Shown: one piece after another, positions 9,049 through 40,268 of the stretch
Layout: each line of letters begins with the position of its first letter
How positions within the stretch are numbered: the stretch's first letter is position 1
Origin: Tortispora ganteri
Taxonomy: Eukaryota
NCBI GenBank assembly: GCA_003707115.1
Contig: PPNB01000016.1
Coordinates: forward strand, 124,001-188,000
Direction of reading: 5' to 3'
DNA length: 64,000 nucleotides
Position numbers and translations under genes: made by a program
Notes under the pieces: generated by a model
Seen by the model: the letters and a program-made list of their open reading frames with translations, nothing else
Databases searched by the model: none
What the model was told of the DNA's origin: nothing

Positions 9049-9876
9049 ATGAAAAGTTCAACACCGCCAATAATGAGCGTTTCAAATGCTGAGGAACAAG
9101 TAGCACTAGGTTTTCTTAAATTAGCGGCTGAAATCGAAACTACTAAGAAACTATCGGCGGAATTCCTCGGCGCGTTGTCGCCACTAATGAGGATGAAGCT
9201 TCAGTATATTCAACCAACCACAACTACACAACACAACCTGACCACATTGATACCAGAAATTGTATGGACTGAATCTTTAAGCGATAAAGATATAATTAAC
9301 AGAAAAAATTTTGTGTTGGCAGGTTCAAGAACGTGTGGGGTTTATGGTGTGAAGTACAAGAGAAACGATCCAGAACAACTACTATGCATGTTCCACTGCA
9401 GCACTTTTTGCACTGATCGATCATACGTCTGCTATTCTGCGACTGTCATTACTATGGGACTAGTGTTTGAGTATGTAACTGAAGAGCAAGCCTGGAAGTA
9501 TTTCAATATGATCGAAGGTGCGCCAACAGATGAGTCATGGTGCGACACTATTGAAGCAGCGGAGGAGTACTACGCAAATCATCCTCCAAATTTCGAACCT
9601 AATGACGATGAATATTGGAACAGGTATGATGAACAGAATCAAGATAGTATTACAACTAAGCCTGCTGAAGATAATAAGAACGAGGAAGACTTCTATAAAC
9701 AGTACGATAATGTTGAAACAGCGATCATCGGAGATTCAGAGAAAGTTGAAACTACTCATCCATTGAAAGAACATATCGGTTCTACTATTGCTAACTTGAA
9801 AAAATTGGCATTGTCTTCAAATATGTCTGAATCAATTTTCAGAGAGATAGTTCTCCAGTCTCTAGACGAGATCTAA
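9049..9876 (+). CDS. Uncharacterised fungal protein with acidic/aromatic C-terminal motifs
   Basis: 275-aa ORF filling the SEC7-TIF5 gap with protein-like composition; motifs DDEYWNRYD and EEDFYKQYD and a helical C-terminus. The start could be the second ATG at 9073. Confidence 0.75.
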   Translation: MKSSTPPIMSVSNAEEQVALGFLKLAAEIETTKKLSAEFLGALSPLMRMKLQYIQPTTTTQHNLTTLIPEIVWTESLSDKDIINRKNFVLAGSRTCGVYGVKYKRNDPEQLLCMFHCSTFCTDRSYVCYSATVITMGLVFEYVTEEQAWKYFNMIEGAPTDESWCDTIEAAEEYYANHPPNFEPNDDEYWNRYDEQNQDSITTKPAEDNKNEEDFYKQYDNVETAIIGDSEKVETTHPLKEHIGSTIANLKKLALSSNMSESIFREIVLQSLDEI

Positions 9877-9970: not shown

Positions 9971-11170
9971 TCACTCCTCATCCTGATCGTCTTCATGTTC
10001 GTCATCAGATTGCGACAGCCATTCAAGGAAAGGAGCAGCAGACTTGCGAATCTTCTTGCTCATTTCCTTGTCCACGTATTTTTTGCTGGCACGAGAACCC
10101 CATTTACTAACAACATCTTCAGATATAATGTCACGGTCGTAGTACTCGTACAAGATCTTGGACACTACAGGAATCAATTCAGGGTGTTGAGTTCCAATAA
10201 ACCTCTCGGTCCCTCCAAGAAAAGCTTTTTCGTGAGAAGGACTTGTAATCAGCTTTTTGAGAAGACCTGCGTGTTCCTTCACCTCATCCACAATATCTTC
10301 AGTAAAGATTGTCTGTGCCAGAACCTGTAATGTTCGCGAATTGTCAACAATATCTAGTTCTTGAGCTTTCTTGTAGATGTCCACGTCAGACGGTAACTCG
10401 TCTTGTCCTGAAATCCAGTCTCCGAGCTCGGAGAATGCGTTCGATGCTCCATAAGTATCTTCATCTTCCTCCTTCTCTCCTGTCAGAGCAACATTTCCAA
10501 CTGCGGAGGCCAGTTCTTTCATTCTAGCCTGCACAGCAGCCTCGGAGGTGTCAACAGTCCACTCATCATCGTAATCTCTGTCTGCATCAGGTAGAGCTGA
10601 AGCCTCTGAGGCTATACGGCGGGTGAGTTCGTCATCGGAGCCATGGGCTTCTTCATCAGCGGCAGAGTCTGCACCTCCGACATTTGAAGTAGCGGTGGCA
10701 GCGGCTTTTTTGCCCTTTTGCTTCTTTTGAGGAGGAGGATGTTTGCTGATATAAGCAGTCAACTTGTGAGTGAGTTCTACCGGAGAACGAGTACCACACG
10801 CTTTGCAGTCTAGCGATATTGATCCGTCCTTTGAGATGATGAATTCCGTTTCAGGGTTCTTGCAATTCTTGCACAAGACGAACTTGTTGATGAAAACATC
10901 GAGCAGATCTTGGAGTTTGGCCGGCTCGTGCACACCGTTGACAACCCAGCGATCTTCACTTTCATTAGCCGAGGTTTGAGCACCAAGCTCAAAACCAAAG
11001 AACTTATTTACATAGATAGGAGGACGGTTGAGGGCACGAGCAACCTCCTTGGTGTTAGTGACAAATGTACGAATACCATTACCACGACCAACGACTTTTG
11101 ATTGGATGGCAGGCATCTTGTACCTATAAAAGGGATCAGTGTTGTCACGTTGAACGTTTATGAGCGACAT
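9971..11170 (-). CDS. TIF5: Translation initiation factor eIF5
   Basis: DPFYRYKMP..GRGNGIRT..KFFGFELGAQT, zinc ribbon CKNCKNPET..CKACG, C-terminal W2 domain (YYDRDII..KWG..APFLEWL). ATG is in strong context AAA-ATG-T. Confidence 0.98.
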   Translation of the reverse strand: MSLINVQRDNTDPFYRYKMPAIQSKVVGRGNGIRTFVTNTKEVARALNRPPIYVNKFFGFELGAQTSANESEDRWVVNGVHEPAKLQDLLDVFINKFVLCKNCKNPETEFIISKDGSISLDCKACGTRSPVELTHKLTAYISKHPPPQKKQKGKKAAATATSNVGGADSAADEEAHGSDDELTRRIASEASALPDADRDYDDEWTVDTSEAAVQARMKELASAVGNVALTGEKEEDEDTYGASNAFSELGDWISGQDELPSDVDIYKKAQELDIVDNSRTLQVLAQTIFTEDIVDEVKEHAGLLKKLITSPSHEKAFLGGTERFIGTQHPELIPVVSKILYEYYDRDIISEDVVSKWGSRASKKYVDKEMSKKIRKSAAPFLEWLSQSDDEHEDDQDEE

Positions 11171-11277
11171 TTTACGTTTTGTAACTTCGGGTTCGGTGAA
11201 TAACTACTACTTATGTACTTTGTACAGCTGATCCAGGGGATTAGATAAAATGATTGCTCTGTAGGATACTGATTCAT
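11158..11277 (-). promoter_or_regulatory. Upstream ORF (39 aa) in the eIF5 leader, poor-context AUG, overlapping the main start out of frame
   Basis: Minus strand TTATTTT-ATG-A at 11277, open for 39 codons (MNQYPTEQSFYLIPWISCTKYISSSYSPNPKLQNVKCRS), stop TAA at 11160-11158 inside the TIF5 CDS. It is the only ATG in the ~360 nt upstream of the TIF5 start. Confidence 0.75.
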
Positions 11278-11642
11278 AAAATAACGCGATCTTTATGCTG
11301 TTGTGTATCCTTTTATGGCAGCTCTTCTTGTTCTCTTGCGTACAACAAACTATTGCTTTATTTGGCTCTGCAAGACAAATTCTTTGGTAAATGAAGAAAC
11401 GATGGTAGGTGGACCGGGAAATTTTCACGTCGGGTACCACAGAAAAAAAGGTTCAGGGTTGTTTGTGACCAAGCCGCACGATTGATAATGTTAGTGTGCA
11501 CCAAGGCCTTAGTGAAATTTGTACTTGTATAGTCATATTTCAGATTCTCGATCTCTAATTGCGGCACTACAGTCGCTATAAATTTATTTTTTTTAGTTTA
11601 CGTTATTTACGCTAGTTTACGTTATATATTAGTATATATATA

Positions 11643-13097
11643 ATGTCTTTTATTGATTACGGTGTGTATCTGGTGACTGATTCCGGTCTGTTACCGCCCG
11701 GTCGGTCTCTTCTTCAGCAAGTAGAGTCAGCCTTGGAAGGTGGTGTGACTTTAGTCCAATTGCGCGAAAAATCCGGTGACACGGGTGAAATTATGCAATT
11801 GGCGCTTAAAGTAAAAGAGTTGACCGACAAATTCAATGTGCCTTTGATTATCGACGACAGAGTGGACATTGCGTTGGCGATCGATGCTGCGGGCGTACAT
11901 GTGGGGCAGACCGACATGGACGTGCCTACTGTGCGAAAGCTAGTTGGACCCAACAAAATTGTCGGTGTGAGCTGTCACACAGTCGAACAGTCTCTTAAGG
12001 CGATTGCTGAGTCTGCAGACTATCTTGGTTGTGGACCCATATACCCCACAAAGACCAAATCGATGGAGCGGCCTCCCTTAGCGATCGATGGACTGAAAGA
12101 GATAGTTGCTGCAGTTTCCGAATCGCCACGACCCATTCCTATAGTTGCAATCGGTGGTATAAAGGTGTCTAATGTCGACGAGGTCCTTAAGGCTGCTCCT
12201 ATTGTCGGTGTTGCTGTCGTGACAGGGATCATCTCCGACCCAGATGCCAAAAAGGCGGCGAGTGGATTCCTGACAAAGGTTCAGACTAACGGCAAGGGTC
12301 GATGGTGCAAAGGTTCATTTGAAAGCGAGAAGCGATACTGTAAGTATCTTTTTGAGGAACAAAAAACTCCTTTAGTACACCAAATTGTCAACAAGGTTGT
12401 ACCAAACTTTGCCGCCAACGTTACACTCGCTTTGAAGGGCAGCCCTATTATGAGTGAGTGTCCTGGTGACTTCAAGGCACTTGCATCAGTTCCTTTTAGT
12501 GCACTTTTTCTAAATCTTGGTAACGCAACGGAACAAGGTTACGAAATTATGCTTGAAGCAGGCAAGGCGTACAACGAAGTCAATCGACCAATCGTGTTTG
12601 ACCCCATTGGAGCTGGAGCGAGCCCAATTCGCAGAGACATTTGTATCCGTCTGTTGAATAATTTACGCTTGGATGTCATAAAAGGCAATGAAAGCGAAAT
12701 TCTGACTCTTGCAGGATACGACACTGTTTCGCGTGGTGTGGATTCAGCGAGCGCTGCTAGCGATACCATCAAGGTTGAAGCTGCGCAGTCTTTAGCGCAG
12801 AAACAGGGCTGTGTCGTAGTTCTCTCGGGCAAAACTGACATTATAACTAATGGTACGGACGTTTACTACAACTACTTCGGGTCGCCTTATTTAGGTCAAG
12901 TTACCGGAAGCGGATGTTGTTTAGGTACAACAATTACGCGATTCTTAACTGCGGACAAGCTTAGCACTTTCCATGCAACTGTGGCAGCTGTTTGGTACTA
13001 CACACGTTCCTCTGAGCTTGTAGAGAATGTAAAAGGACCAGGCACGTTTGTACCGGCGTTCATTGACAGTTTAGCAACTGGATCAGCGCTGAATTGA
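11643..13097 (+). CDS. THI6: Bifunctional thiamine-phosphate synthase / hydroxyethylthiazole kinase
   Basis: N-terminal ThiE domain (VYLVTD..GGVTLVQLREK..IIDDRVD..GVHVGQTD..PTKTK..VAIGGI) fused to a ThiM domain (PLVHQIVN..ANVTLA..SPIMS..FDPIG..IKGNESEI..VTGSGCCLG). Confidence 0.96.
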   Translation: MSFIDYGVYLVTDSGLLPPGRSLLQQVESALEGGVTLVQLREKSGDTGEIMQLALKVKELTDKFNVPLIIDDRVDIALAIDAAGVHVGQTDMDVPTVRKLVGPNKIVGVSCHTVEQSLKAIAESADYLGCGPIYPTKTKSMERPPLAIDGLKEIVAAVSESPRPIPIVAIGGIKVSNVDEVLKAAPIVGVAVVTGIISDPDAKKAASGFLTKVQTNGKGRWCKGSFESEKRYCKYLFEEQKTPLVHQIVNKVVPNFAANVTLALKGSPIMSECPGDFKALASVPFSALFLNLGNATEQGYEIMLEAGKAYNEVNRPIVFDPIGAGASPIRRDICIRLLNNLRLDVIKGNESEILTLAGYDTVSRGVDSASAASDTIKVEAAQSLAQKQGCVVVLSGKTDIITNGTDVYYNYFGSPYLGQVTGSGCCLGTTITRFLTADKLSTFHATVAAVWYYTRSSELVENVKGPGTFVPAFIDSLATGSALN

Positions 13098-13204: not shown

Positions 13205-14017
13205 ATGTGTTCACATACTATAGGGAAGTTAAAAGGCTGTGATTCCACTGGGGCTCTACATTGCATTCGTCGATCGCGGCAGTGTAGTCCTGATTCAAGG
13301 TGTGGAGTACTCTTAACAACCAAAGTTGACATTAGAGGTTCTGAAAGCAAATTTATTGGCTGGTTGAATGAATTGTTCAATAGATCAAGTGAATCTAAGA
13401 AGACTTTGATTCATGGTGATTTAATTGCAAGTTCAAATGTCACCTCTAACGTCATTAGCGACACACATACTGATAATAATACGAGGCCTTCATATCCGAT
13501 CATTTCCAATGAGTTCAAAAGCAGGCCACATTCTTGTAACTCCTTAATAAGTTTACCAAGTGTTGGCTATATCTCAGAGTATAGTGTTTCGGTTTCTCGA
13601 TCCAGTACTTGCAGAACACGAACTACAGAACTCACTATTTTGCCTTCAATTCCTGAGGAAATTAGCGACTCAAGTAATAATAGTGATGCAAATTCAAATG
13701 AGAACTCACTGAGCCACAATAGCATCACTATGGATTTCAGTTCGACTCCTAAGTCTTCTATATCACATAATGTTGATTGGTTTAGCGTCTATCTTGATAC
13801 AGCATTCGCAGAGAAGCCACAGAGTCCACTCGAGAATAGCTGCTCTATAGATTCATCCGAATATCAGCTGTCTGTGACATCTCAGCAGGAACTAATCGAC
13901 TTCTCGTCTGATATCGTGCATAGCGCCATTCTACAAGAAATTCGCATACCAAAGAAATCAAGGCTGTTCAATTGGTTGAATACTAGGAAGCACAGACAAC
14001 CTATATATTGCGATTAA
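13205..14017 (+). CDS. Orphan protein: Cys/His-rich N-terminus followed by a Ser-rich low-complexity region
   Basis: 270-aa ATG ORF filling the THI6-NOC3 gap; no family recognised. Confidence 0.6.
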   Translation: MCSHTIGKLKGCDSTGALHCIRRSRQCSPDSRCGVLLTTKVDIRGSESKFIGWLNELFNRSSESKKTLIHGDLIASSNVTSNVISDTHTDNNTRPSYPIISNEFKSRPHSCNSLISLPSVGYISEYSVSVSRSSTCRTRTTELTILPSIPEEISDSSNNSDANSNENSLSHNSITMDFSSTPKSSISHNVDWFSVYLDTAFAEKPQSPLENSCSIDSSEYQLSVTSQQELIDFSSDIVHSAILQEIRIPKKSRLFNWLNTRKHRQPIYCD

Positions 14018-20439: not shown

Positions 20440-23400
20440 CTAACTCGCTTTTGGCTTTCTTCCCCGTCTCTTCCAGTTGTTCCGGCGATCCATCTTCTTA
20501 TTATGGAACTCGAGGATTGCTGTGGCTGCCACTGATCCTTGGCTTTTAGGCGAGGAAATCAAATGACCTATTGTAGATATAGCTGTATAATTTCTCCACA
20601 TGAGACATTTCGCCTCTAAATCTCCAAGTTTCTCCTCATCATCGTACCTTTCGTCATTCTGACTCGTGCCCATAGAATCGATAACTTTGTCTTCCTTTTT
20701 TGGTTCCACAATATTGTTGCGACGGCTGCTAGACCGTGTCAAACGAACAAACGAGTTGTCATCATCATTACTATTATTTTCCTGATTCTTCAAACCTTTG
20801 GCTTTAATATTAGAAATCCTCACACTAGATCTCAACACTCGCCGAGAAGGAACTTCATTTTCATTTTCAGAAGAGTCAGACATGGGCTCGATACTAGATT
20901 GGCCTTCATCGTCCTCACGTTCAGACTGGTTCAAACTGTCAGATGTATTTTTCGGCTCTTCTTCATTCTCCTTTTTCACTTCTAGCTCCTCGTTTTTAGT
21001 CGTTTGTTCCACATCATCTTCATCTGCATCACCATCATCTTCCTCCATATCTATGTCAAGATAAATGCTTCGTTCCAAAATCGACTTTTCAATCTCAGGT
21101 AGGTAATTCGTCAGCTCTCTGCGAAGCTTCGACTCTCGTTTACCCCATGGATTCAACCACTGGATAAGCTCCTTAATCTGAGAGACTTTATCATAATATC
21201 CCCACTCTAAAGGTGTCCAGAAACTGACTCCGTCTTCCTCAATAGCTTTTCTTTTGATGACGGGGATCCCTGACTCCGGAAATTCGTCAAAATGCTGTAG
21301 GTAGAAATCTCGCACGGGCTCTTCTAATGGATTTACAGCTGATGGAACAGGAGAGACATCAGTCTTCAACAAATATTCAGCGCTGCTTTCGCTAGGGCCT
21401 TGAACCCACAATCTCCCCATAAAATATTCAGCATGCGAGTTCTCTTCAGGCTCAAAACCTCGTCCTTCAAACCACCAATAGGTATTAAAAAACCTATCTC
21501 GCCCAAGGATACGGCTTCGCTGCGCGTCAAGACATCGTACACGATTTTCAGCGCTCTCCATGATTTGGTTACACTCATCAATTTTGTCCTTTAATTCCTT
21601 ACATTTTTTCCAGACCTTTGCAAATTCAGCGTTGGATTTGGCCAACGCTTCTTCGGGAGATTCATTAGCATGACTCCTTAAGCGAACTTTCATTCCACCA
21701 TCAGACATATCGTCATCGTTGTTTTGCTCTTCGTCAGGAAAATAAGACTGTTTCTCTTTTTCTAGCGCTGCAAGCTCATCTTGAAGAGGCTTCACCACTC
21801 TAAGACTCTCAATGCGTTCTTTGCGATATTTTGTACTTTCTTCAAGGCAGTATTCCAAATATGTGCGTGTGAAAGAAGAAACTCTCACTATATCAACAAG
21901 GATTCCAAGAATTAGCAGCTTTTCTTCCCATTTAAGATTAAAGAACGTTGTTCTTGCAGTGTCAAGTGTCTCAGGCATAGACAAAGGAGCAAGTTTAGGC
22001 AAAATTTTCTCACAGAATTCTGAGTATTCCGGAACGTGTTCCATTTCAACTATAATGGATATTACTATAATTGCCCAAGCTCCTCCGCGATACTGTTCCT
22101 TGAGAAGTCGAGAACGCCAGCCTCCTCTGTACTTCTTCATAGCTGAACCCTTGTGTGTTACTGATTCAGTATATGAATAGTCTGAAGTAGGTGACTCTCC
22201 ATTGCTAGTAGCGGAAGAGTCAGATGCGACAGAAGAAGCTTCAGGAGTCGAATATCGACTATCAGTTGTTCCTTGTTCGCTAGCATCCATATCCACTTCA
22301 GTAAAATTCACAGGAGGAATAGATACTGATAAATCTTTTTTATTGGGCAATATCATAGCAGTCAATAATGCGCAAAATATTTCATCAAAAAGCTCACAAA
22401 CAGAGGGACGATTTGACACCTTTAAGCATTCGAGGAAATCATCGTAACATATAGGAGACAAGTTCAGAGGGATTCTAAAGGTATTGAGATAATCCCAAAT
22501 CTCAAGAGATCTGGGAAACAAATCTTTAGAAATCTCTAAGTCAATATTTGGTTTAGGACGCACATTAACAGCCTTAGCGGTAACAGGCCATGTTTCAAGG
22601 TCTTCGAGAACTCTTAGTTGACGCTTGCTATAATGCTCTCGTTCTGCAGAACCATTGGTTTTAGGCACAGATTCATCCTTGTCAGTAATTTTCGAACCTT
22701 TAAGACGACTCTTTTTAGTTTTTGGTTCGCTAGGGCTTGATTCTATTTCATCTTTACCTTCCGTTTTCTTTCGGCCTCTTTTGTGCCCGTTTCCGGAGAC
22801 GTCATCATCGTCAGGAATATGAGTTCGACGACGTAGGCGTTTCATAGCCTCCTGCTCTTCGCGAGCAAGATATTCTGGCATTTCTGTATTGATATTATAT
22901 TTCTCAGCATATTCGGGTCGGACTATATAAGGCGCACCAGAGTAGGCAGCACGAGTTGTAGCAGTTTTGATAAACCAGCGAATAAGACTTTTAGTGTAAT
23001 TCCTGGAATCGCGTTGTAACTGAGAACCTTCTACAGTCTCTTCTTTCCCAGGAACTGCGACGTGTTCGACTCTGTATCTTGATATTGACGACGCAGTAGT
23101 GTTGTTATCTGAGTTAATGAACGAGTTTAATGTTGCTTTTTCTCGTACTATGACTTCCACGCGAGCATCTGTATCGAGAGACATGAGTACGACTTCACCG
23201 GGAAAGAAATCTTGCACAAATGTATCGTAAAGATCATCTACCAATGTAGTAATTCTGCCCATTGTGCACCATTGAACACGTCGTAATAGTGGACCTTTAA
23301 GCGGTTCTGGGAAATACTTTTGAAGTTCAATGAGCTGTCTAGCTTCGCTCTTGAGAGCGTCAAAATAAGTAAGTTCGCAATGACCCGTTATACCACAAAT

Positions 23401-23678
23401 GAACTGAGGTTTTGTGTAGAAGTCCATTCGTTGGAGGTAGTCGTCATACGACTTGAAGTACTCACCGGTTTCGGGAATAATCCATACTTCGTCATCATCA
23501 TTCAAATTCTTTGGGGGAGGCAAAGGAAGGACAGGTTTTCGCTTCAAATAAACGACCTATATATGAATGTTAGTTTCTGCAGCGACATGCGTTGTCTGCT
23601 CTATGCGGGGCAATCGGAGCGAGAATTTTGAAGGGATTGGAGTTGTTGTTGGTGGGGTCGAAGGACAATACTTACCAT
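20440..23678 (-). CDS. ITC1: ISW2 chromatin-remodelling subunit Itc1; exons 23676-23678 (ATG) and 20440-23556
   Basis: Spliced start MVVYLKRKPV; WAC domain (VWIIPETGEYF..YLQRMDFY..FICGITG..LTYFDALKSE), DDT region, WHIM/WSD motifs (LGRDRFFNTYWWFE, MGRLWVQGP, WLNPWGKRESKL). Confidence 0.92.
23557..23675 (-). other. Spliceosomal intron (119 nt) of ITC1
   Basis: GTAAGT donor immediately after the ATG, AACTAAC branch point at 23575-23569, TAG acceptor ending at 23557. Splicing supplies the only ATG for the conserved N-terminus, in frame. Confidence 0.9.
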
Positions 23679-24099
23679 CGGATCAGAGCCAGATCGCTAA
23701 TAAGATCTGCTAAGTTTCGCGCAAAGAAGATTGACAATTATTCAAAAGAATCGAATGCGGAAGATAGGCTGCAAATGTATATAATTAGTAGCCACGGGAG
23801 GAAAAGAGGTAGGTGCTAGGTAAACGCGATTTGTGTAATGCACTCTGGGTGCACTATAAAATAATGAATCTCAATAATTATGTGCAATTAATAATAAAAC
23901 AGCAGCTATTTATTGAGCTAATCAGATTAGGTAGTAAAACCGCCGAAACTGGGGCAATGAGTTTCACTATTTCTTCGATAATTAATATAAGGAAGAAGAA
24001 AAAGGAAAATCGGGGTGAAGAAGGCTTACTTATAACGCTCTGAATATACTTAACAAAATAAACTTTGATGCTTATTTTAAAGTACTACAGTCTATTTCC

Positions 24100-24369
24100 T
24101 TATTCGACAACAGCCTTAAGTAGTACATAGTGTACTACGGACAAGTCATATATCTTGAATCCTCCACCTAATCTACTCTTTGTTTTTAATGCTACTGCTA
24201 ATATTTTGTCCTGTATTTTTATAAATCTTAGTGTTTCAGAACCACTCTGCAAAATGCGGTCGTAAGACAATGAGAGCACTATGTTTAGAGTTTCGATAGC
24301 GCCCTTAAGTTCACGATTAACCTTCTTGTTACTTCTTATTCTCCCAACTGTCTTTCGGTCTCGGGGCAT
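24100..24369 (-). CDS. Possible small basic protein (89 aa), may be spurious
   Basis: ATG ORF in the unusually long (~860 bp) ITC1-MDN1 divergent gap; no recognised motif. Confidence 0.25.
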   Translation of the reverse strand: MPRDRKTVGRIRSNKKVNRELKGAIETLNIVLSLSYDRILQSGSETLRFIKIQDKILAVALKTKSRLGGGFKIYDLSVVHYVLLKAVVE

Positions 24370-24495
24370 GCCTAGTTGGCCAGGCTAAAACTTTAATTTT
24401 TTGCTGCACATTGGAGGTTTTTTTTTCATTGTGATCATTTTGATTCTCGAAAAAGCCCATATCGCGATCATCCGACAAACAGATCTATTCTAAGG

Positions 24496-24514
24496 ATATA
24501 TATATATATATATA
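24496..24514. repeat. (AT)n microsatellite running into TATAAA just upstream of MDN1
   Basis: atatatatatatatatata, ending 22 nt before the MDN1 ATG. Confidence 0.85.
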
Positions 24515-24536
24515 AAGCTGTCGATCATTACATATA

Positions 24537-27500
24537 ATGGATTTGTATAGTTTTAGTATACCAAGCGCTCAATTGGTAGATCAAGAACTGCAACCACTGT
24601 TGTCATCGTTCGTTTCGCACCTGGGTATATCGCTTTTCGAAGATATACCTGTTAAAATGCAAACTGATCATGCTTTTCTTGACTTATTGAGTAATGTGCT
24701 TTTACAAGACTGGAATGTACTCATAGCTGCAGTGTACTTTGATTCTTTGCTTCCCGATATTGCAGTAAGATGGGCTGCCATTACTTCAGATCAGCCCATA
24801 GCCGCTCTCAATGCACTCGCCTTGATCCTTCCGCTGTGCCCGCATTTAGCACCTATAGCACTTAACTTGCTGCATAGAGTGAAGCTAAACTATACAGATC
24901 GACATCTCATTGTGTCGCTGTACCGGATGTTGCGGCACAGTGACGAATTTGCCGACATTATACCGCTTACAACACTAATCGATCTTACTAACACCTCTGA
25001 CCCACTAGTGCGCTACTTTGCCGTCCAAATAGCCTCAAGAGTCCTTGAACTAGCTCCCAAAGCAAAAAATAATGCTATTAAAGCTACAAAGAGTATCTCT
25101 TTGCAGTCATCAATGTTAATGGCCCCACTTTCGTTTGATCCTGTTACTCTCGCAACGCAGGAAGTCGATGTTCAGTTCTTTGATCTTTTCGAGGCCGAAA
25201 GGCTCGATAATTGGAATAAACTCCGTATGCGCACTAAAAATATGGTACAAACTCCATGTTCGATTCCTTTGTCTTTTTTGTCCGCCAGTACGCTTTGTGC
25301 TGGAAACGTGTTGCTTTATCGACCATACCTATCCTCTTATAAACGTGTTAATTTCATACCTACGACGTCAGGATCTGTTGCTGTCGATCAAATGGCTTTA
25401 GCAATACGCGAGAAGAAACCAGTTATGGTGATCGGACCCGGCGGCTCTGGTAAAACATTCCTTATAGAACAATTTGCGCACGCTTGTCGGAGACCAGGCG
25501 ATTTTGTCAAGATCCACGTTGGTAGCCAGACTGACTCAAAGATGTTGATTGGTTCTTACACTACAGGAGCTACTCCTGGAGTATTTGAATGGAAACTGGG
25601 AGCGCTTGCTCGCGCCGCTTCTGAGGGTTTGTGGCTCTTGATCGAGGATATTGATCAAGCACCAAGCGACATGATCAGCGTTCTTCTGTCTCTACTTGAA
25701 TCTCGCACATTAATGATTCCATCGCGCTCAGAAATGATTGAAGCTCATCCGCAGTTTCAGCTAATATGCACGATCAGAACACCTTCCGCTAAGAAAGTTA
25801 TTGGTGAACATCTCTGGACTAAAGTTTGCCTAGACACTCCTACGTCGCATGATCTTGAAGCTATAATGCTAAGTAAGTACCCTATACTTTCACCGTTCAA
25901 TGAAGTACTTGTACAAAGTTATCAAGAAATTGATGACATGTTGAACTCCAAAATAGGCATGACATCAGAAGACGGCGCCCGTAGACGGCGGTTCAATAGT
26001 CGTGATCTATTCAAATGGGCGTCTCGTTGTTCTATAGATGCTAAAACTATGGGACTCAACTCATTGTCTCACGAGGTTCCTGATTACTTCTACGATATAA
26101 TACTACGTGAAGCTTATGATTGTTTCTGTCAGAGTTTTTCAAGTGATAAATTGAAAAGAGCAATACTTGAGATAGTGGCAGGTCGCCTATCTATTTCTGT
26201 TAACAGAGCCGAAGTTCTTCTGCGTGAAACACCAAAAATGAATGATTCAAACCCTGCAGAATTACATATAGGTCGATCTCTGCTGATAAGAAAGCCGTCT
26301 AGCGAGAAAATACAGCTAAACAAATCCTCTTTTGCCTACACAAATCACGCTCTCAACCTTCTTGAACGATTATGCGTTTCTGTATCATTGAATGAACCAA
26401 CGCTGCTTGTTGGAGAAACAGGTACGGGTAAAACTACGATTGTGCAGCATCTTGCATCACTCATGAACAAAAAACTCACTATTGTCAATCTTTCGCAGCA
26501 GTCTGAAGCAAGCGATCTCATTGGTGGGTTCAAACCGGTTGAACCGAGTACGCTTGTAATACCGCTCTTGAATGCATTCGAAGACCTATTCTTTTCTACA
26601 TTTTCACAGGATAAAAACTCCACATATATTCGGGCATTGACACAATATGCAGAGAAAAAGCAGTGGAGTGCTGTCACTCGAGTGTTTTCCAGCACGTGCC
26701 AAAAGGCCATTGATGCACTGGAGGCAAAATTTGCCCAAAAATTCAATGAGAATGCAGAGCACAAAAGCAAGAAAAAGAAAACAAACGAGGATCTGAAAGA
26801 GCTTATCAATCGATGGAAATATTTCAAGAAGGAAGTGCACGATTTTCATGCTGCTCAAAGCAAGTCCGCTAACGCGCTTATTTTCAAGTTCGTTGAAGGA
26901 GCTCTCGTTGAAGCAGTACGTAATGGCTACTGGATTCTTCTTGACGAAGTTAATCTTGCAAGTCCTGAAACTCTCGACGGAATATCGGATCTTTTATCTA
27001 CATCTGGAGATCGTACGATGCTTCTATCAGAGAAAGGCGAGCTAGAGACCCTGACTGCGCATTCAGAGTTTTGTCTATTTGCATGCATGAATCCATCCAC
27101 GGATGTGGGCAAGCGTGAACTCCCTGAAAGTCTCAGATCGAGGTTTACTGAGATTTTTGTAGAGTCTCCGGACACTTATCGTCATGATTTACTCACAATT
27201 ATTCAAAGCTATATGGGCTCGCTCACTGCGGGTGATCAGACAATTTGCGGCGATATTGCTGAAGTATTTATGACAGCTAAGAAATTGTCAGAAGACCACA
27301 AAATTCTCGATAGCTCGAACAATCGTCCACATTACTCAATTAGAACGCTGGCTCGCACGTTGATATATGTTCAAGACATGGTGCGCTATTACACTCTCAG
27401 AAGATGTGTTTACGAAGGATTTTGCATGACAATGCTTACTGCGCTAGATAACTCATCTGAAAGCGTTTTAGAGAGCACATTTGTGGATTTAATTTTTAAA

Positions 27501-30500
27501 AACGAGAGAGCAAAGAAAGCTGCTCTTAATCAATCGCCGAGGATCGACCAGAACAGTACTGACTATGTTGTTTGGAACGACCAAATTATCCGCAAGGGAC
27601 CTCTAGAGCCTGTTAAAGATGACAAGTTTATTATAACGCCGTTTGTACAGAAAAATCTCAGAAATCTTATGCGTGCAACTTCTTGCAGGAGATTTCCTAT
27701 TCTTATACAAGGACCTACTTCCAGTGGTAAAACTAGCATGGTGTCATATCTGGCCAAACTGACTGGACATAAGTTCGTTCGCATTAATAACCATGAGCAC
27801 ACTGATATACAAGAGTATGTTGGTTCTTATATTGCAGATTCATCTGGAAAGCTAGTCTTCCAAGATGGTATCCTAGTAGAAGCCATGCGGTCTGGTTCGT
27901 GGCTAGTTCTAGACGAACTAAATTTGGCTCCTTCTGATATTTTAGAGGCTTTGAACCGACTTCTTGACGACAATCACGAACTTCTTATTCCTGAAACACA
28001 AGAAGTAGTCAAACCGCATCCGGAATTTCTACTATTCGCTACACAGAACCCGCCCGGTGCATACGGTGGTCGTAAACACCTCTCAAAGGCATTCAGAAAC
28101 CGTTTTCTTGAACTTAACTTTGAGGATATTCCACAGGATGAGCTGGAAACTATTTTGCGCGAGAGATGCAAAATAGCTCCTAGCTATGCGAACAAAATTG
28201 TTGAAGTATACCGTCAGCTATCTCTCGTTCGTCGAACAACTCGATTATTTGAACAAAAGAACAGCTTTGCCACTCTGCGTGACTTGTTCAGATGGGCTAA
28301 CCGCGAAGCTATTGGCTACGAGCAGCTTGCTTATAACGGATACGTTCTTCTTGCAGAGAAAGTACGTGAACCGTCCGAGAAGGCTGTGGTATTGGAAACA
28401 CTGGAGAAGGTGATGAAGGTGAAAATCGATGTGAACCAGGTTTATCGAGTTCCGCAAGAGGTTATCAACAAGAGCTTCAACGGCATGGTGTGGACCAATT
28501 CACTGCGAAGACTGTATACGCTAGTTAATAGCGCTGTTGCGAACAAAGAACCTGTATTGCTGATTGGTGATACAGGTTGTGGCAAGACTAGTGTATGCCA
28601 ACTATTAGCTCACATCAACCACAAAGAGTTGTCGATTTTCAATGCATACCAAAACACAGAAACGAGTGATCTGATTGGATCTCAACGGCCCGTGCGCAAT
28701 AGAAAGGCCAATGAGCAAAGACTACGGCAAGCTATATGTGATAATTTAAAAGACGCCGATGCCAGTAGCTCTACGGACGATCTGATCTCCTTATTTGAAG
28801 AAAATTTCACTATATACTCTGAGAAACAACAATCTCTAATTTATGAGCTTATACAGCGTCATCGTTCACTCTTTGAATGGGTGGATGGTCCTTTAGTATC
28901 GTGCATGAAGCAAGGATCTTACTTCTTGCTTGACGAGATATCACTGGCAGATGATTCTGTGTTGGAACGGCTTAATTCTGTATTGGAACCTGAAAGGACT
29001 ATACTTATTGCAGAGAAAGGTTCAGGTGACAGCTTTGTACAAGCTGAAGACTCATTTATGTTTTTTGCTACGATGAACCCCGGTGGAGATTATGGCAAAA
29101 AAGAGCTTTCACCTGCATTGCGAAACCGTTTTACAGAAATATGGGTCCCAAGTATGAACGAAATTGATGATTCTGTTCAAATTGTTGTGGCATCTCTATT
29201 ACCCGAATTGCAAAAGTTTGCAGAACCAATGGTACAGTTTTCTGTATGGTTCGCAAAGACATTTTCCTCTGATGGACAGGTTTCTGGTAATATATCCATT
29301 CGAGATCTGCTTTTGTGGTCCAATTTCATGAACTCGTACGTGAAAAAGGCATCAAATTACTCAAATAGGGAGTTGAATTCCCTTTTTTTGGAAGGATCTT
29401 ATTTATCTTTTGTGGATGGACTCGGCACTAACAACACATTTGGCTTGTCGGAGAATGCTGAGATGCTGAGAGAGGCAAAACTTTCGTGTAAGACAAAATT
29501 ATGTGCTCTGATTAATGTCGAACCAAGCTTGATTGCTGGTGATGGTGGCAAAATTGACATTTCTAATGACGCTATAAATGCTGGAATATTCTCTATACCC
29601 CGTCTAAAGGTGAACGAACTGTCACAGTTTGATTTATCTGCGCCTACTACTGCATTGAATGCATACAGGACTATCCGGGCTATGCAGGTAAACAGACCCA
29701 TTCTGCTTGAAGGAAACCCCGGTGTCGGCAAGACTGCACTTATTACGAACCTTGCAAAAGTTATAGGTGTGAATCTTACCAGGATCAATTTGTCTGAGCA
29801 AACAGATCTGATCGACTTGTTTGGATCTGATGTGCCTGACGAGACACAGGATATTGGTAACTTCAGGTGGCAAGATGCGCCTTTCCTACAGGCCTTACAG
29901 CGTGGTGAATGGGTACTTTTAGACGAAATGAACCTGGCTTCGCAAGCTGTCCTTGAGGGACTTAACGCTTGTTTAGACCACAGAGGAGAAGTGTATATTC
30001 CTGAATTAGGCCGTTCATTTGTCAAACACCCGGATTTCAAAGTATTCGCTGCACAAAACCCACAGGGACAAGGCAGTGGAAGAAAAGGATTGCCTAAATC
30101 GTTTTTAAATCGTTTTTCGTTAGTTTACATGAGCCCATTGACTGCTGTTGATCTTGAAATTATATTGTCTTCACGCTTCCCACAATGGGCCGATATATGT
30201 GGCAAATTTGTCAATTTCATGGAGAGAATCAATACGGAACTTGACAAGCGTACTTTTGGAAGTGCAGGTTTTCCATGGGAATTCAATTTACGCGACAGTA
30301 TTAGATACTTCAAGCTTTTAGAGCGCTTTACTATTGAGTCGGAAGGAGCACCAATTGCCTTTTTGATTAAGCTAATATTTGCGGAAAGGTTTCGTTCGAA
30401 GACTGATCGGCAATACGTTGAACAGATTATGAACGAGTGTTTTCAGATTAACGAGCGCATTGATTTTAATAGGTCTTCCATACAAGAAAATGAAGATTGT

Positions 30501-33500
30501 TTAATTGTCAATAGAACGTCTATCAAACGGTCTGATGTCTATGCACCAAAGAGAGGCAGAGAACTTCAAGTATTACACTGCAATCAATTCCTTACAGAGT
30601 CAATTATGGCCTGTGTTGAATTAAATTGGCCAGTATTGCTTTATGGCCCTGCAAGATCTGGAAAATCGTCTTTGATTAGGAAATTGGCTAGCATTGTTGG
30701 ATCAAAGCTCTATGAAGTCGCTCTCAACCAGAGTATTGATAGCTTAGACCTTCTTGGAGGCTATGAGCAAGTTGACACTGATTTTTCTCGCAGACAGGTT
30801 TACACTGAACTTACTGAACAGTTAAATGGGTTTCTACGCAAGTTGTACTGTAGTAATTTGCATCTAATTGGATCTGTGAAAGACTTATCTGCGATTTGTG
30901 TGCAAATATCTACACTTTCGCTTCAGAATATCCAGAAAACCTTTGAAAATTTTATTAAAGTTCACCAAAAAAGGCTTCTTGAAACTGATACTGGCAAAGA
31001 ACTAATCAATTATATGAAACTACAAGTTGATATTATTGATTCCTATGCTTTGCTACCTCTCAAGGAAAGTTCCACCAACTTTGCATTTAAATGGATTGAC
31101 GGCGTACTTATACGCGCCGCAATTGAAGGTTCTTGGGTTATACTTGACAATGCGAATTTGTGCAATCCAGCAGTCCTGGACCGTCTTAACTCTTTGTTAG
31201 AGGAGAATGGATTTCTGGTATTAAATGAAGGAGTGATGACAGAAACTGGTGAACCTCGTGTAATATATCCTCATCCAAATTTCAGAATATTTCTTCTAGC
31301 TGACCCTTCTTATGGTGAATTGAGTCGTGCAATGCGTAACCGTGCGCTTGAGCTGTACGTTCCAGACCTTGCTGAAAGATCTGAATTGCTTGATCGACAA
31401 TCATTAAAGATCATTCCATCAGATATTCCTATTGTTCAGCACCTCTGCGACTTGGATCCGACCATTTCCTTTTTGAAAAATATGCATTTACTTCCTCGTC
31501 TTATGTCAAACTTTGCTGAACCGTCATTCCTTTTACAAGGTCTGGCAGAAATGCTGCCTGAGAACTGTAGCCAAACGCTACAAGACTGGTCACGCGTACT
31601 TACGCAACTATCATGCACCACATTGCAGCAGTTCTATTCTGAAGAAACTCTTAAAAGCATATCTGACTACGCTAATTTCTATCGAGTCTCTAAAGTCAGC
31701 AACTACATCAATACAATGCCTTTAATTACCGAGTACCGACGGAAATACAATTTGGAAGAACTACCGAAGCCAAATATACTCACTGTTGGTAATTATTCAC
31801 TTTCATGCCTGCTTTTTAAACGACCAGATTCTCTAACATACTGTCACGATATTGAAATTGACTTCCACAAGCTGAACGCACTCATGCCAAGTTGCTCTTC
31901 TGCGAAATACTTATCATCTCAAGACAAAACCGAATCAAAAACCCTAGAAACATTCTTAAATTTGTTTATTACATTTTTTAACAAGATGTCTGCTGATACG
32001 TTTGCTACTGTTATTGCTTCTGAAGAATCTCAACGTCTAATTCAATCTCTTGTTGCATTGGCGCTCTACCTTGCAGATTTGCTGAAAAACAATGTACTGC
32101 TAGGAAGTCATGTTTACGAGATAGTAAAGCTCATTCTAAATATGTCTACCGATTTTGCAGTGAGTAACTTTAGTCAACTCTCCGAATCTATAGATATACT
32201 ACGCAAAAGGTACACTATCACTCGAGGCCAGAGCATCTATACCTTATGGAATCAGCTCCATGCTCGATTGCCGGCAACTAAAGAGAAATATACAATATAC
32301 CAGAAGACACTGGAACTGGGTGCTAAATTTGATCGTATTCTACTTGACGTGTCTCCTTTGTTGTATTCTGATCTTACAAGTTTGCTTTTAAGGCTGCTGG
32401 ATATGTCGTCTGGCTTGTATGCTGATGTGGCAATAGAAGCACAGCTCACTGATTTTATATCGGATCGTTTAGACGAGATATATTTTTCAATTCAGCAGGA
32501 GCAAAATAACCAACAAAAGCTGCGAAATAGGAGAAACGACGAGAAGAGTTACGTAAAGTTTCAGTTCTTTTACAGGACTTGTTTTGTTGCAGAAATGCTG
32601 AACCTGCATGGTGATGGCGAACAATCATATATTTCTCAATCATTGATCCCTCTGGCTATTAATTCGGGATTGAAATATTCCTGGATAGAGCTTTGCAACG
32701 TCTATTGGGGCACAAAGAACAGAGTTCTTATGCAGAATGTTAGTATATCGCCACTTCTATTCCAGAATTCAATCAGTGAAATTTCTACTGGAAAATATGT
32801 GCTTAATTTGTGCAATATAATTAGCGAGCATACATACACGCCTCTGAAAGAGTCACAAGCTACACTCAATATAATGCAGGGTGTTCATGATGCTATGGTT
32901 AGCTCTATTGATACGCTACTTAAAGACTTCAATGCTATTCTTGCAGAAAATATACTTCTGAAGTTGTTTAAAACTATTGCTTTGTTTGATGCAACTTTAG
33001 AAAGCATGCTTGCAGAAATTTACAACAATATCAAGTATACCAGTCAAATTCCATTGGCAATTGAACATATCTTGCAGAAGATTGACTGTTCTAGCTGTTT
33101 TGGAACTTCCTGGTCAATGTACTTTGTGCCTTGTTTACAAGCAATAAGTCAAGGAAATTTAAGCAGTGCTTTTATTCTTTACGGCCTTGGAATGATTGAA
33201 CTGTATGTCCCGAATGTTCCAATAGATCCTGTACTTGGTGTGAAGATTGAATCTGAAATCCGGGACCGCGAGAAGGCCATTTTTGAAGAAAAGGTTTCGC
33301 AGTTCAATGTACTGTCACGACTTTATTATGGAATGGATACTACTTTTAGACCTATTCTGCAATCACGTGTTCAGTTAGATGCGGGTGAACTAAAACCTAC
33401 AGGATTCCGTGAGACTAACAGCCAAATCTATGAGGTATACAAGGATATTTGGAGACTATTGAGCTCGACTGTAAACGACAGTCTTCTTCAAGCGACTACG

Positions 33501-36500
33501 GATGTCTCAGGTTTACGCGAAACCAAGATCGAACATACCAAATCAGTTATACAAAGTTTCATAGAACGTACCAACACGCAGTACAATGATCTTAGGGATT
33601 TCACTGCGCCACTGAACTCTTTTCTTGGAGATATATATATTGGACTGAGTCTTGAGAATATGGAAACCACTTCTCAAGATGGAATATGTTTGTTGCCGTT
33701 CAGTATTTTTTCACGAGTTATTTCTATGAACTCAAATATTATTGAACATTTGAAATTGATGAACGAAGAAGCATTAGTGGAATTTTTTGAAGTTTTTTCA
33801 ATGCTGGCCCGCATCTTACTAAAAACTTCCAATATCGAGAATACTCGGATATTGACTGAGATGCTGGTTCATATATCTGATCGTCTTTTTGAAAAACACA
33901 AGTCTCGTGAAATACTTGAAGAAAGAGAAATGCAACTACTCAATTCAAACTATATTGACAAATCTGCAGCGGAACAATTTGAGTCAGAGTTCCAGGAAAT
34001 GTTTCCTGATTACGAAGAACAAAGTGCTGCAAGTAAAATGACCAGCGAATCTGTTTTTGAAAGAATATGCAATGCGCAAATCAGTATATTTGAGAAGGAT
34101 TTGTATTCTGATGAAATATTGTCGGTGTATTCCTCTTATAATTCATACAAATACATTGAAGGAAAGTTAACTTCCAGTGAATTATCTGACTTGTACATGG
34201 CAGCACTTCTTTCCATACGCGAGAAGTCTGCCGGAATCAAGCAAGAGCGAGGAAAAGCGTTTGACTTCTACTACGAGAACTCCGCAGAGTCGTTAAAGAC
34301 TGTATCGGAATTTTTGCCGCTTGCGACCAGCTCTGTAAAATTACTGTCAGATAAGTATCCAGACAATGAAATTTTGCGCGACACTCTGATTGCTTTAGAA
34401 GAGCTTTCATGTTTTGAAGTCACACAGCCGCTAGCACGATATTTACACAAAGTTGAGCAAATATACGTATTGCTAGATGAATGGAACAAAACAGCGTCAA
34501 AATCTGAATCATTAAGTAAAGTATCAGAAATCTGCGCTAAAATACTTATTGATTGGCGCAGAATTGAACTCAGATGTTGGCCTGTACTTTTTGAAAAAGA
34601 AATTAGGCAAAGCCAAAAGAATGCTTTACTCCGATGGTACGATATTTATGAGGTATGTATCAGGAATGTGCTTGCAATGGCTGAAGCTGAACAGTTTTCT
34701 ACGTCTGATATTGTTCCTATACTGGATGTCCTAGAAAAGTACATTGGACAATCTTCTATGGGTGATTTTGGATCAAGACTACATCTTGTAAAGTCTTTCT
34801 CGTCGTATATTGATCTGCTTGCAGAAAAGTTTGCTTGCTTGAAACCTCTGGCACATGCTGTTGAAAGTCTTTACAGATTTTATTCCTTATTTTTGGAATC
34901 TATAAGTCAGGATAATGATACAAAGTTGAGAGAACTGAAAAAGAAAATGGAAGAGGTAATCTTACTTGCGAGCTGGAAAGACACGAATGTATTTGCACTA
35001 AAGGAAAGTGCAAGAAAATCTCATTTATCTTTATTCAAGATTGTTAAAGAACTCAGAGAGAAGCTTTCTATTCCTGTAAAGCAGGTTATTTCAAATGAAA
35101 AAGTCAAGGAATTGCAAACTATTGAACCATTTCAGACTAGTTTTTCTTTAGACTGCACTGTGATGCCAACGAAATCTATATTGGTTATGAACAACATTAT
35201 TGACATGGTTGATTCAATTTCGTTGTTTGATCTAAGTGAGTTTACATCTAATGCATTAGAAACTGCTGAAAGATTGAAGAAAGAAACACCTAATGTATTG
35301 ACCGAAGAGAATGCTAAAACTATACAACATTTGAAACATCTCAAACACCGTGAATTCTCTAACGCATTGAAAGAACTGAAAGCCGCTGGATTGAAGTACA
35401 AAGTGTCGATCTCTCAGAGCCTTATTGAAAGTGACTTGTCATCTATAATTCTAAAATCTGCTAATTTAGAGCATTTTGATTCAGCATATACTGACAGTTA
35501 TTACAGAATTGTTGCTCTTTTCAGTTCTTTAAAGACTCTGAACTACTCTCATTCAGAGGATTTGGAGGATGCGCAAGTACGTCGCGGAATTGGGCTTGCT
35601 GAATCTTTGATAAGTACTATTGTTAAACTGAGGAACGTTTTGTTTTCTTTACATGCAAACTACGCAAGTATTGAAAAGCAAGTTAAGTTAATAGATGCTT
35701 ACAATGATGGCAGCAAACTAATTGCATTGCCAGACAATACTATATCGTTTGCCACCGTGATGTTGCTTCCGTTCTACATTGACCACGCGCTATCTCGTGC
35801 TGCAGCAGTCAAGGAAAAGGTTGATAATAAAGTTGTTGATTCGTTAAAAGTTTGGTATAAATTGTTTGAAGAGAGATCTGCCAGATTCCGCTATTTTTCT
35901 GAGCGTTACGTTTGCACAAAACCAACAGAGAAATACTGCACATTCTTAGCTGAATTGGGAATGAAAATATCTGAATTCAGGGCTGAATTGAACGAAATAA
36001 GTCCATTCTTTATTGTCGACCATATTGCAAATCTTCTTGATTCTGATATCAGAATGCATATTTCTGAACCAACAGGAAATCCTGCAATGAGTGATCGACC
36101 TGTTTCCGACGCAGTAAAGATCTCATTCCAAAAGGTAAAATCAGTGATCGAACTTTTTGGAGACGGAAATACGGACTATCAGATGTTTTCGCGCAATATA
36201 GAACGAGTACTAATAGGTCTAGATCTTGTTGCGATAAACAATGCGCTTGAATCGCGTACAAAGCTGTACTTTGATGGAAAAGTTGATGAAATATTATCTG
36301 AATACGATTTGGCACTCTTGAAAAAGTTTACTGAACTAGTGCAGAAAATTAAATCGAACTTACAACGACATTACATTGATACAGTCCGTTCTACAGTTTC
36401 CTTAGTCAAGCTGTTTGTGGATATCGCATCTAACGGCTTCTGCTCACCACAAGAGCAGGATGAATCAGTAGACAAAGACCACAGTAAGACAGGCGATGGA

Positions 36501-38957: not shown

Positions 38958-38978
38958 CCTCTGTAACTAATCTATATT

Positions 38979-40268
38979 TTATAATGAAGACTTGTATTCC
39001 GGCAAAATGCCTAATTCTCCAGATCGTGAATTATCAATAGGCGAGCTCGCAGTGATATCAACGGTAGGATAACAGAATCTCTGTGCTAGTTCGGGGTCGA
39101 GTGCTCCTTCAATGGCCTTCACGATATAGTCCCCAATTATGGGCAGAAATTTGAAAGCATGACCGTTCCCAGAAGTAGCTAGAAATATCTTGTCAGAGTT
39201 AGGATAATAATCAATAATGAAGTTGCCATTGTGTGTATCGGTGTAGCAGCAGATGCGTGTGTGTTTCCATTCGCGGTTGGTAAACTCGCCCTGGAAATAG
39301 TGATCTAGTCCATCACGTAGGACTTTTTCTGCAGTTTCGGGAAGATTCACTTTCTGTTTCATGTGATCATGTACCGCCAAATCTGGCGATGATACCAATT
39401 GCGATGGGTCGTACATGGATGGACAGAAACGCTGGTACCCTCGAGAATGCCACGCAACCTTGAGGTAGTTATTCTGTGGATGAGGTGGAAAACAGTAGAA
39501 TCCAGACCCCAGATCCAAAATTACAGGCAGTTTTGCATACTTAACTGCCTCTTCTTGGGTTAGTTCTATAATTCCTACTGCCTGCCCGGTAGCTCTTATT
39601 CTTGATCCTGTATTGATCAGTCCGCTGGTCCATGCGCCAGTCGCTAGAATGACAAAGTCAACTTCAACTGTATTACCTGCTTTAAAACGCAGTTCAAGTG
39701 TATCGTCCCTATCGCTGACACCAAGCACCGTACCGTTATCTCCAAACACAAAATGCACACCTAGCGCTTTGCATTCGTTATATGCTTGTTTTATCGCATC
39801 AGAAGCATGAGCCCAGCCTGAGGAATAGTTAAAATAGCCATTAAGTGGTATAAGCGCTGCAGGAGACAAAGTAGTTTGCTTGGAAATGTGGTCTATAGAA
39901 TTAGCAGTGATTTTGCAGATATTCAGATCAAGCTGGTCCATATTCCATTCTGACGACCTTTGGTATTCTGAATCAGCGCTCACAGCACATGTGAGTAGCA
40001 GCCCTGCTTGCTTATAGTGATCGCAATATGTTGTTCTCCATAATTCCAAAGCTTCAAGCGCTAATTTTGCGTAGACCGGGTCGGCATAATCTGGCCGAAT
40101 AATACGATTTATGTCTACGCTGGATGCATCAGGGACTGGGGGTTCCATCCGATCGTACATATGCACATTAGTGTACCCCCGAAGTTTGAGGAACTTGCCC
40201 GCAGACAATCCAAAAGTACCACATCCAATAATAGCAATGCGAGAATCTTTTGTAGGACGTACAGGCAT
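38979..40268 (-). CDS. FAD-dependent oxidoreductase, sarcosine oxidase / L-pipecolate oxidase / fructosyl-amino acid oxidase family
   Basis: IAIIGCGTFGLS (GxGxxG), ASSVDINRIIRPDYAD, ILATGAWT, RICCYTDT..GNFIID, GHAFKFLPIIG. ATG at 40268 (the track start is a GTG). Confidence 0.9.
   Translation of the reverse strand: MPVRPTKDSRIAIIGCGTFGLSAGKFLKLRGYTNVHMYDRMEPPVPDASSVDINRIIRPDYADPVYAKLALEALELWRTTYCDHYKQAGLLLTCAVSADSEYQRSSEWNMDQLDLNICKITANSIDHISKQTTLSPAALIPLNGYFNYSSGWAHASDAIKQAYNECKALGVHFVFGDNGTVLGVSDRDDTLELRFKAGNTVEVDFVILATGAWTSGLINTGSRIRATGQAVGIIELTQEEAVKYAKLPVILDLGSGFYCFPPHPQNNYLKVAWHSRGYQRFCPSMYDPSQLVSSPDLAVHDHMKQKVNLPETAEKVLRDGLDHYFQGEFTNREWKHTRICCYTDTHNGNFIIDYYPNSDKIFLATSGNGHAFKFLPIIGDYIVKAIEGALDPELAQRFCYPTVDITASSPIDNSRSGELGILPEYKSSL

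Follow-up and report, generated by a model that had tools for sequence, protein, structure and literature searches.

Feedback between eIF1 and eIF5 that sets how stringently start codons are chosen is considered almost universal among eukaryotes. For eIF5, its arm of this circuit was described by Loughran, Sachs, Atkins and Ivanov in 2012 from 337 eIF5 homologues, among which upstream AUG codons (uAUGs) proved to be nearly universal (PMC3326321; here and below, statements cited from published papers refer to the parts of those papers that were available). According to that account, high eIF5 leads to more use of the uAUG and hence to less eIF5 synthesis, whereas eIF1 has the opposite effect; this autoregulation was first noticed in Neurospora crassa and has been shown in human cells. 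The subject of this report is a candidate for the same device in a budding yeast, namely a uAUG and its upstream open reading frame (uORF) ahead of TIF5, the eIF5 gene, in a 64,000-nt stretch of the Tortispora ganteri genome (assembly GCA_003707115.1, contig PPNB01000016.1, positions 124,001 to 188,000), which is referred to as the window.

Several characteristics recur in the published eIF5 leaders. At uAUG1, 98.8% of cases have U at −3 and none has a purine there, G never occurs at +4, and U is selected at −1 and −2. Most fungi outside the Pezizomycotina have a single eIF5 uAUG, the longest fungal eIF5 uORF exceeds 21 codons, and conservation of the uORF peptides is only phylum-specific. The fungal logos in the available part of that paper represent Pezizomycotina, Basidiomycota and early-diverging phyla, and budding yeasts are absent from them (PMC3326321).

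Related observations have been made in other fungi. In Cryptococcus, ribosome density is seen on a poor-context uAUG of TIF5, and the mRNA level is 2.6-fold higher in the upf1-delta mutant (Wallace et al. 2020, PMC7049704). The eIF5 mRNA of N. crassa is a target of nonsense-mediated decay (PMC7049704). In Schizosaccharomyces pombe, the uORF of tif5 is translated more during nitrogen starvation, and translation of Tif5 itself falls 16-fold (PMC8126119). The partner factor eIF1 (SUI1) autoregulates through the poor context of its own AUG (Ivanov 2010; Martin-Marcos 2011, as cited in PMC3326321 and PMC7049704). For budding yeasts, the literature searched on eIF5 or TIF5 uORFs held no statement either way and no description of the eIF5 arm, and the available parts of PMC4705826, PMC8892498 and PMC5487733 are silent on a budding-yeast eIF5 uORF. 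Tortispora is placed in the Trigonopsidales, which stand out among budding yeasts as an order that diverged very early (PMC11182611).

The upstream reading frame of Tortispora TIF5

The locus and its features are listed in Table 1. Two Pfam domains, eIF-5_eIF-2B (E 6.6e-36) and W2 (E 3.5e-19), identify the 399-aa frame as eIF5. Its top relative among 4340 matches is the eIF5 of Tortispora caseinolytica NRRL Y-17796, with 371 of 388 residues identical (96%), while the remaining named relatives share no more than 59% identity. The N-terminus, MSLINVQRDNTDPFYRYKMP, aligns with the T. caseinolytica protein from residue 1, and the ATG at 11170-11168 is therefore the true eIF5 start. It is found in the context CGTAAA-AUG-U. 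The A at −3 is common to 16 of the 26 main starts in the window, the rest having G (4) or C (6) at this position and none T.

Table 1. Features of the TIF5 locus, in window coordinates.
Feature	Position	Strand	Basis or remark
uORF, 39 sense codons plus TAA	11158..11277	-	crosses main AUG, out of frame with eIF5; stop 11160-11158
uAUG with context UUUU-AUG-A (U at −4 to −1, A at +4)	11274..11281	-	direct sequence reading
ATG-free sense-strand stretch	11278..11533	-	between uAUG and next ATG at 11536
Candidate TATA-like element CATAAAAG	11310..11317	-	1 mismatch to TATAWAWR; 147 nt before main AUG, 40 nt before uAUG
T7 tract (11449-11443) and AAAATTT motif (11425-11419)	11419..11449 (−279 to −249)	-	motif reading
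eIF5 (TIF5) coding sequence, 399 aa	9971..11170	-	open reading frame list and translation, Pfam, homology
THI6, bifunctional thiamine-phosphate synthase and hydroxyethylthiazole kinase	11643..13097	+	Pfam HK (E 1e-72), TMP-TENI (E 3e-63)

TIF5 and the divergent THI6 share a spacer of 472 bp. The uAUG (11277-11275) lies 107 nt from the main ATG, measured from A to A, and is the sole sense-strand ATG in the 365 nt before the eIF5 gene; the only further one in the spacer is at 11536 (−366). Direct reading thus bears out an earlier interpretation of this DNA (the sequence-only reading), which had described a uAUG 107 nt upstream in the context TTTT-ATG-A as the only ATG in some 360 nt. The same interpretation had the 39-codon uORF crossing the main start (AAA-ATG-T) out of frame and stopping 8 nt beyond it, and the coordinates agree, with the TAA beginning 8 nt past the G of the main ATG. 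The encoded peptide runs from MNQYPTEQ to VKCRS. Reinitiation on the main AUG of eIF5 was held to be excluded, and this is sound, since a long, out-of-frame uORF terminates only after that codon. Removal of the uAUG by an intron finds no support: the signals GTA[ATC]G[TA], GTATG, GTAAG and TACTAAC were not found on the TIF5 strand of the spacer, and an ACTAAC at 11495 on that strand lacks a suitable 5′ splice site.

Past the end of the uORF, the next AUG (11114-11116, minus strand) comes 42 nt downstream of the stop codon, in the good context ACAAG-AUG-C; it is in frame with eIF5 and encodes Met19. Reinitiation at Met19, if any, would yield an eIF5 minus its first 18 residues, which presumably include the arginine required for the GTPase-activating (GAP) activity of eIF5 in Saccharomyces cerevisiae. 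The fold of the TIF5 leader is no better than that of shuffled sequences (z-score −0.98), and a search of the whole window with Rfam returned 0 families.

The locus has much in common with the system of Loughran et al. Both concern the eIF5 gene, and they have in common U at each position from −3 to −1, a base other than G at +4, a strong main AUG, a uORF of more than 21 codons and, as in most fungi outside the Pezizomycotina, a single uAUG. The overlap between the uORF and the main ORF resembles that of the vertebrate uORF1 (PMC3326321). The differences are that the host is a budding yeast, a group outside the fungal logos of that paper, and that the published system was shown in human cells. 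TIF5 of Cryptococcus neoformans and C. deneoformans is similar in that a poor-context uAUG precedes a strong main AUG in a yeast-form fungus. Cryptococcus differs in offering measured uORF ribosome density, an extra upstream CUG start and a rise of the mRNA in upf1-delta, and it is a basidiomycete with long leaders. S. pombe, an ascomycete yeast that does not belong to the Pezizomycotina, likewise has a single uORF in the leader of its eIF5 gene tif5, although this uORF is described, in the text available, through translation under nitrogen starvation.

Two further systems are instructive by their differences. SUI1 autoregulation forms the other half of this stringency circuit and was demonstrated in S. 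cerevisiae, but it acts at the main AUG, without a uORF. A SUI1 domain was not found among the 25 of 26 window ORFs scanned with Pfam, an ORF of 4806 aa being left out of the scan. The uORFs of GCN4 and cpc-1 also represent uORF-based translational control in fungi. However, they are short, permit reinitiation and sense the eIF2 ternary complex, whereas the window uORF is long and overlapping and excludes reinitiation on the main AUG.

Chance expectation and other fungal eIF5 loci

Two versions of the pattern were counted: a loose one, with T at −3, no G at +4 and a length of at least 21 codons, and a strict one that additionally has TTT at −3 to −1. The background was the window's other intergenic DNA, comprising 253 ATGs in 17,070 strand positions. 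T was present at −3 of 91 of these ATGs, TTT at −3 to −1 of 8, and frames of at least 21 codons followed 78; the loose combination occurred at 21 and the strict one at a single ATG. From these counts, one expects the loose pattern in 13% of stretches of 110 nt and 17% of those of 150 nt, and the strict pattern in 0.6–0.9% (110–150 nt).

An upstream ATG is, in itself, ordinary. The window has 26 ORFs of 100 aa or more, and an ATG precedes 12 of them within 107 nt and 17 within 150 nt. Four of the 26 have, within 150 nt upstream, an overlapping uORF that is out of frame and 21 codons or longer, and in just two of these, TIF5 and a gene starting at 23427, does its ATG also have T at −3 but lack G at +4. 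The gene at 23427 encodes a WAC/DDT/WSD protein (ITC1/Acf1-like; 20440-23427, minus strand) whose match opens at position 22 of the Pfam WAC profile, and the start at 23427 is therefore probably mis-called. Several ATGs lie 20–74 nt upstream of 23427, and the 1109-bp spacer at 23428-24536 holds a 450-nt ATG-free run on the sense strand. The real start of this gene is probably upstream of 23427, perhaps across an intron.

The sense strand of the TIF5 spacer is also poor in ATGs, with 2 as opposed to 6.6 expected (2000 dinucleotide shuffles, P=0.0125); on the opposite strand there are 7, as opposed to 8.3 expected. Of 208 gaps separating neighbouring ATGs in the other intergenic DNA, just 1 is as long as the 259-nt ATG-free gap above the uAUG. 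This ATG-free stretch points, if only weakly, to a leader that may extend beyond the uAUG.

Metagenome contigs served as a control. Scanning them with an alignment of 16 budding-yeast eIF5 proteins yielded 80 loci, of which 72 allowed the main ATG to be assigned (those dropped were L029, L031, L035, L036, L043, L046, L054 and L063). By N-terminal motifs and BLASTP to named references, the 72 comprised 65 loci of other fungi and 7 of budding-yeast type. None of the 80 derives from Tortispora, the best being only 55% identical to the window eIF5.

A uAUG of the loose pattern was present within 420 nt at 60 of the 65 loci from fungi other than budding yeasts. Where at least 420 nt of upstream sequence was available, the figure was 56 of 57, as opposed to 19 of 45 on the antisense strand. 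Of the 50 distinct longest uORFs, 46 have T at −3, 36 have T at −1, 12 have TTT and 1 has G at +4. These counts indicate that the approach recovers the published uAUG rule, and the statement in the sequence-only reading that the eIF5 mRNAs of filamentous fungi carry poor-context uAUGs agrees with both the published survey (PMC3326321) and the metagenome loci. Two loci of early-fungus type (L001 and L002) have a 37-codon uORF at −181 that opens with TTTT-ATG-A, a context identical to that of the window uAUG.

The typical layout in filamentous fungi is a uORF of 33–37 codons at about −250 to −390, with the context GT[TAC]T-ATG-T and a conserved peptide, followed by a uORF of 21–26 codons at about −100. 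Across some 38 distinct loci within L009–L079, the uORF1 peptide is conserved as MY..F..PP.KLQ.FRI.RKPCS..NG, is 33–37 aa long and always ends in G. Such strong conservation in filamentous ascomycetes suggests that this uORF may be more than a passive one. The window uAUG, at −107, implies a much shorter leader than those loci have. Its uORF also overlaps the main AUG, whereas those of the 65 other fungal loci end upstream (L074, an apparent exception, looks like a mis-assigned start); the overlapping architecture is otherwise typical of vertebrates.

The seven budding-yeast loci vary considerably. In L011, a 28-codon uORF at −74 (1427, with the eIF5 ATG at 1501) opens with CTCC-ATG-C and overlaps the main AUG out of frame. 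This architecture matches that of the window, and the closest sampled relative of L011, L008, is without it. L008 instead has uORFs of 7 and 15 codons at −95 and −119, with a purine or C at −3, plus a 36-codon uORF in good context (A at −3) at −229. L005, closest to Blastobotrys and Trichomonascus, carries at −209 a uORF of 33 codons whose ATG has C at −3. The two Saccharomycetaceae loci differ from one another: L006 has a 6-codon TTTT-ATG-G uORF at −40, and L007 (405 aa) has no ATG within 165 nt. L003 has only good-context ATGs, beyond −200, and L037 has none in the 202 nt available. The statement in the sequence-only reading that S. cerevisiae TIF5 lacks the feature fits L007, although no paper stating so was found.

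What the sequences show directly is the anatomy of the Tortispora element, how rarely such a pattern arises by chance and how well it fits the fungal consensus.

Transcript start and competing explanations

Whether the uAUG is transcribed depends on where TIF5 transcripts begin. TATA-like elements (1 mismatch to TATAWAWR) lie on the TIF5 strand at −361, −147 and −47, and the one at −147 may act as a TATA element. The T7 tract and AAAATTT motif further upstream look like the upstream part of a promoter, and the latter is one that we take to resemble the RRPE element of ribosome-biogenesis promoters. We also assume that the Trigonopsidales branched off before the lineage of Yarrowia. In fission yeasts and Yarrowia, the transcription start site (TSS) is located about 30 bp after the TATA element, whereas in later budding yeasts it is located 50–120 bp after it, and scanning-type initiation as in S. 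cerevisiae gives a distance of 40–120 bp; this scanning mode appeared only once Yarrowia had split off (Lu and Lin 2021, PMC7849388). If the Trigonopsidales predate that split, the −147 element would direct a TSS near −117, and the uAUG would be included in the leader at about 10 nt from the cap. Under scanning-type initiation, most TIF5 starts would fall downstream of the uAUG.

With modest confidence, the uAUG at 11277 is taken to lie in the TIF5 leader and to work as an eIF5 start-codon-stringency sensor of the kind described by Loughran et al. (2012). We infer that it is transcribed, translated, and responsive to eIF5 and eIF1. Scanning 43S complexes would reach UUUU-AUG-A first. As no context is worse than U at −3, most would pass it by, start at AAA-AUG-U and make eIF5. 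Those that do start at the uAUG would read through 39 codons, crossing the main AUG out of its frame, and would terminate 8–10 nt downstream of it; these ribosomes would therefore make no full-length eIF5. By an argument made in PMC3326321, resumption of scanning after a uORF of 39 codons would not be expected. More eIF5 would then mean lower stringency, more use of the uAUG and less synthesis of eIF5, with eIF1 working in the opposite direction. On this account, an early-branching lineage of budding yeasts would have preserved an ancestral element. Such retention is supported by a phylogenetic bracket, in that eIF5 uORFs are found in Pezizomycotina, Basidiomycota, early fungi, Cryptococcus and S. 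pombe, and Tortispora is early-diverging. Retention of the circuit had been proposed in the sequence-only reading, and this can be followed in part. The sequence-level features are all present and the strict pattern is rare, but the other budding yeasts sampled do not speak for a general retention, with a comparable uORF at one of seven loci within 200 nt.

A number of observations weigh against the sensor. The loose pattern is present at one further gene of the 26 (that at 23427, with its probably mis-called start), and three other genes in the window likewise have long ATG-free runs upstream on their sense strands. To include the uAUG, the leader must be at least 108 nt long, which exceeds what is usual for this class of gene, since the ribosome and RNA-transport KEGG groups of 12 yeasts have median 5′ untranslated regions of 37–63 bp (PMC7849388). 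Scanning of the S. cerevisiae type from the −147 element places most starts downstream of the uAUG, and the classic alternative leaves the codon so close to the cap that its effect could be small, as cap-proximal AUGs are commonly bypassed (PMC7049704). The uORF peptide does not match the conserved Pezizomycotina pattern. Finally, a comparable uORF is present within 200 nt at 1 of the 7 budding-yeast loci and within 420 nt at 3 of them, which is near the chance rate, and the element is therefore not general in budding yeasts.

Alternatively, the uAUG could be a chance ATG in promoter DNA, with TIF5 transcripts starting downstream of 11277, or only rare isoforms including it, and with no translational role. 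This is a real possibility, albeit one we hold to be somewhat doubtful. It draws on the commonness of upstream ATGs among the window's genes, the 13–17% expectation for the loose pattern, the short leaders of the gene class, the TSS predicted by scanning from the −147 element, and the five budding-yeast loci (all except L011 and L005) that have nothing comparable in the available upstream sequence. A chance origin has more difficulty with the strict UUU-AUG-non-G pattern with at least 21 codons, for which the expectation is below 1%, with its occurrence at the one gene where it is expected, and with a sense strand otherwise free of ATGs for 365 nt. The late origin of scanning-type initiation also counts against it, to the extent that the assumed earlier branching of the Trigonopsidales holds.

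Two other explanations accept the uAUG as part of the leader. It might be a constant, weak damper, perhaps nearly fully bypassed near the cap, with no meaningful eIF5 and eIF1 feedback. We consider this improbable, although a classic TSS about 30 bp after the −147 element leaves only some 10 nt before the uAUG, both cap-proximal and poor-context AUGs are commonly leaked past (PMC7049704), the eIF1 autoregulation of S. cerevisiae is described as only modulatory in the available part of PMC4705826, and the unremarkable fold of the leader offers no stable downstream structure to slow scanning. That the 39-codon frame encodes a functional small protein is very unlikely indeed. The frame is open for 39 codons, but its last codons are dictated by the start region of eIF5, its start context is the poorest possible, and its peptide belongs to no Pfam family and has no credible relative among 1.84 billion representative proteins. 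The only match in that set, a 595-aa repeat protein aligned with residues 3–18 in 8 stretches (E 7.8e-5), was judged to be a repeat artefact. Similarly, a likeness of PKLQ in the peptide to the Pezizomycotina uORF1, seen by eye, failed a test with a hidden Markov model built from 38 metagenome-derived peptides, in which it scored 3.7 bits (E=2) and ranked 9 among 567 decoys from the window. A uORF peptide without relatives fits the phylum-specific conservation published for eIF5 uORF peptides (PMC3326321).

Genomic setting and meaning for budding yeasts

Genes in the window are packed very tightly, with 26 ORFs of at least 100 aa per 64 kb and only 9.0 kb of intergenic DNA. Convergent genes can be as near to one another as 21 bp (e.g., 38957-38979). 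The 4806-aa ORF is located at 24537-38957 on the plus strand, and four ORFs have no Pfam family at E<=1e-5, namely 53317-58467 (minus strand, 1716 aa), 9049-9876 (plus), 13205-14017 (plus) and 50732-51154 (minus).

In a wider sense, it is an evenly balanced proposition that Tortispora, a member of the Trigonopsidales, keeps the ancestral eIF5 stringency-feedback uORF in a compact, single form that overlaps the main AUG, and that later budding yeasts such as Saccharomyces, which appear to lack it, have lost it. The practical gain is small, since one regulatory uORF would be added to the annotation and the mechanism is already known. If the element is real, its particular interest lies in the lineage and in the compact architecture overlapping the main AUG. 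If the proposition is true, the ancestor of budding yeasts had the circuit, its loss falls inside the budding yeasts, and the timing of that loss is narrowed. Tortispora would then be a yeast of small genome in which the eIF1 and eIF5 feedback could be compared with its natural loss in other budding yeasts.

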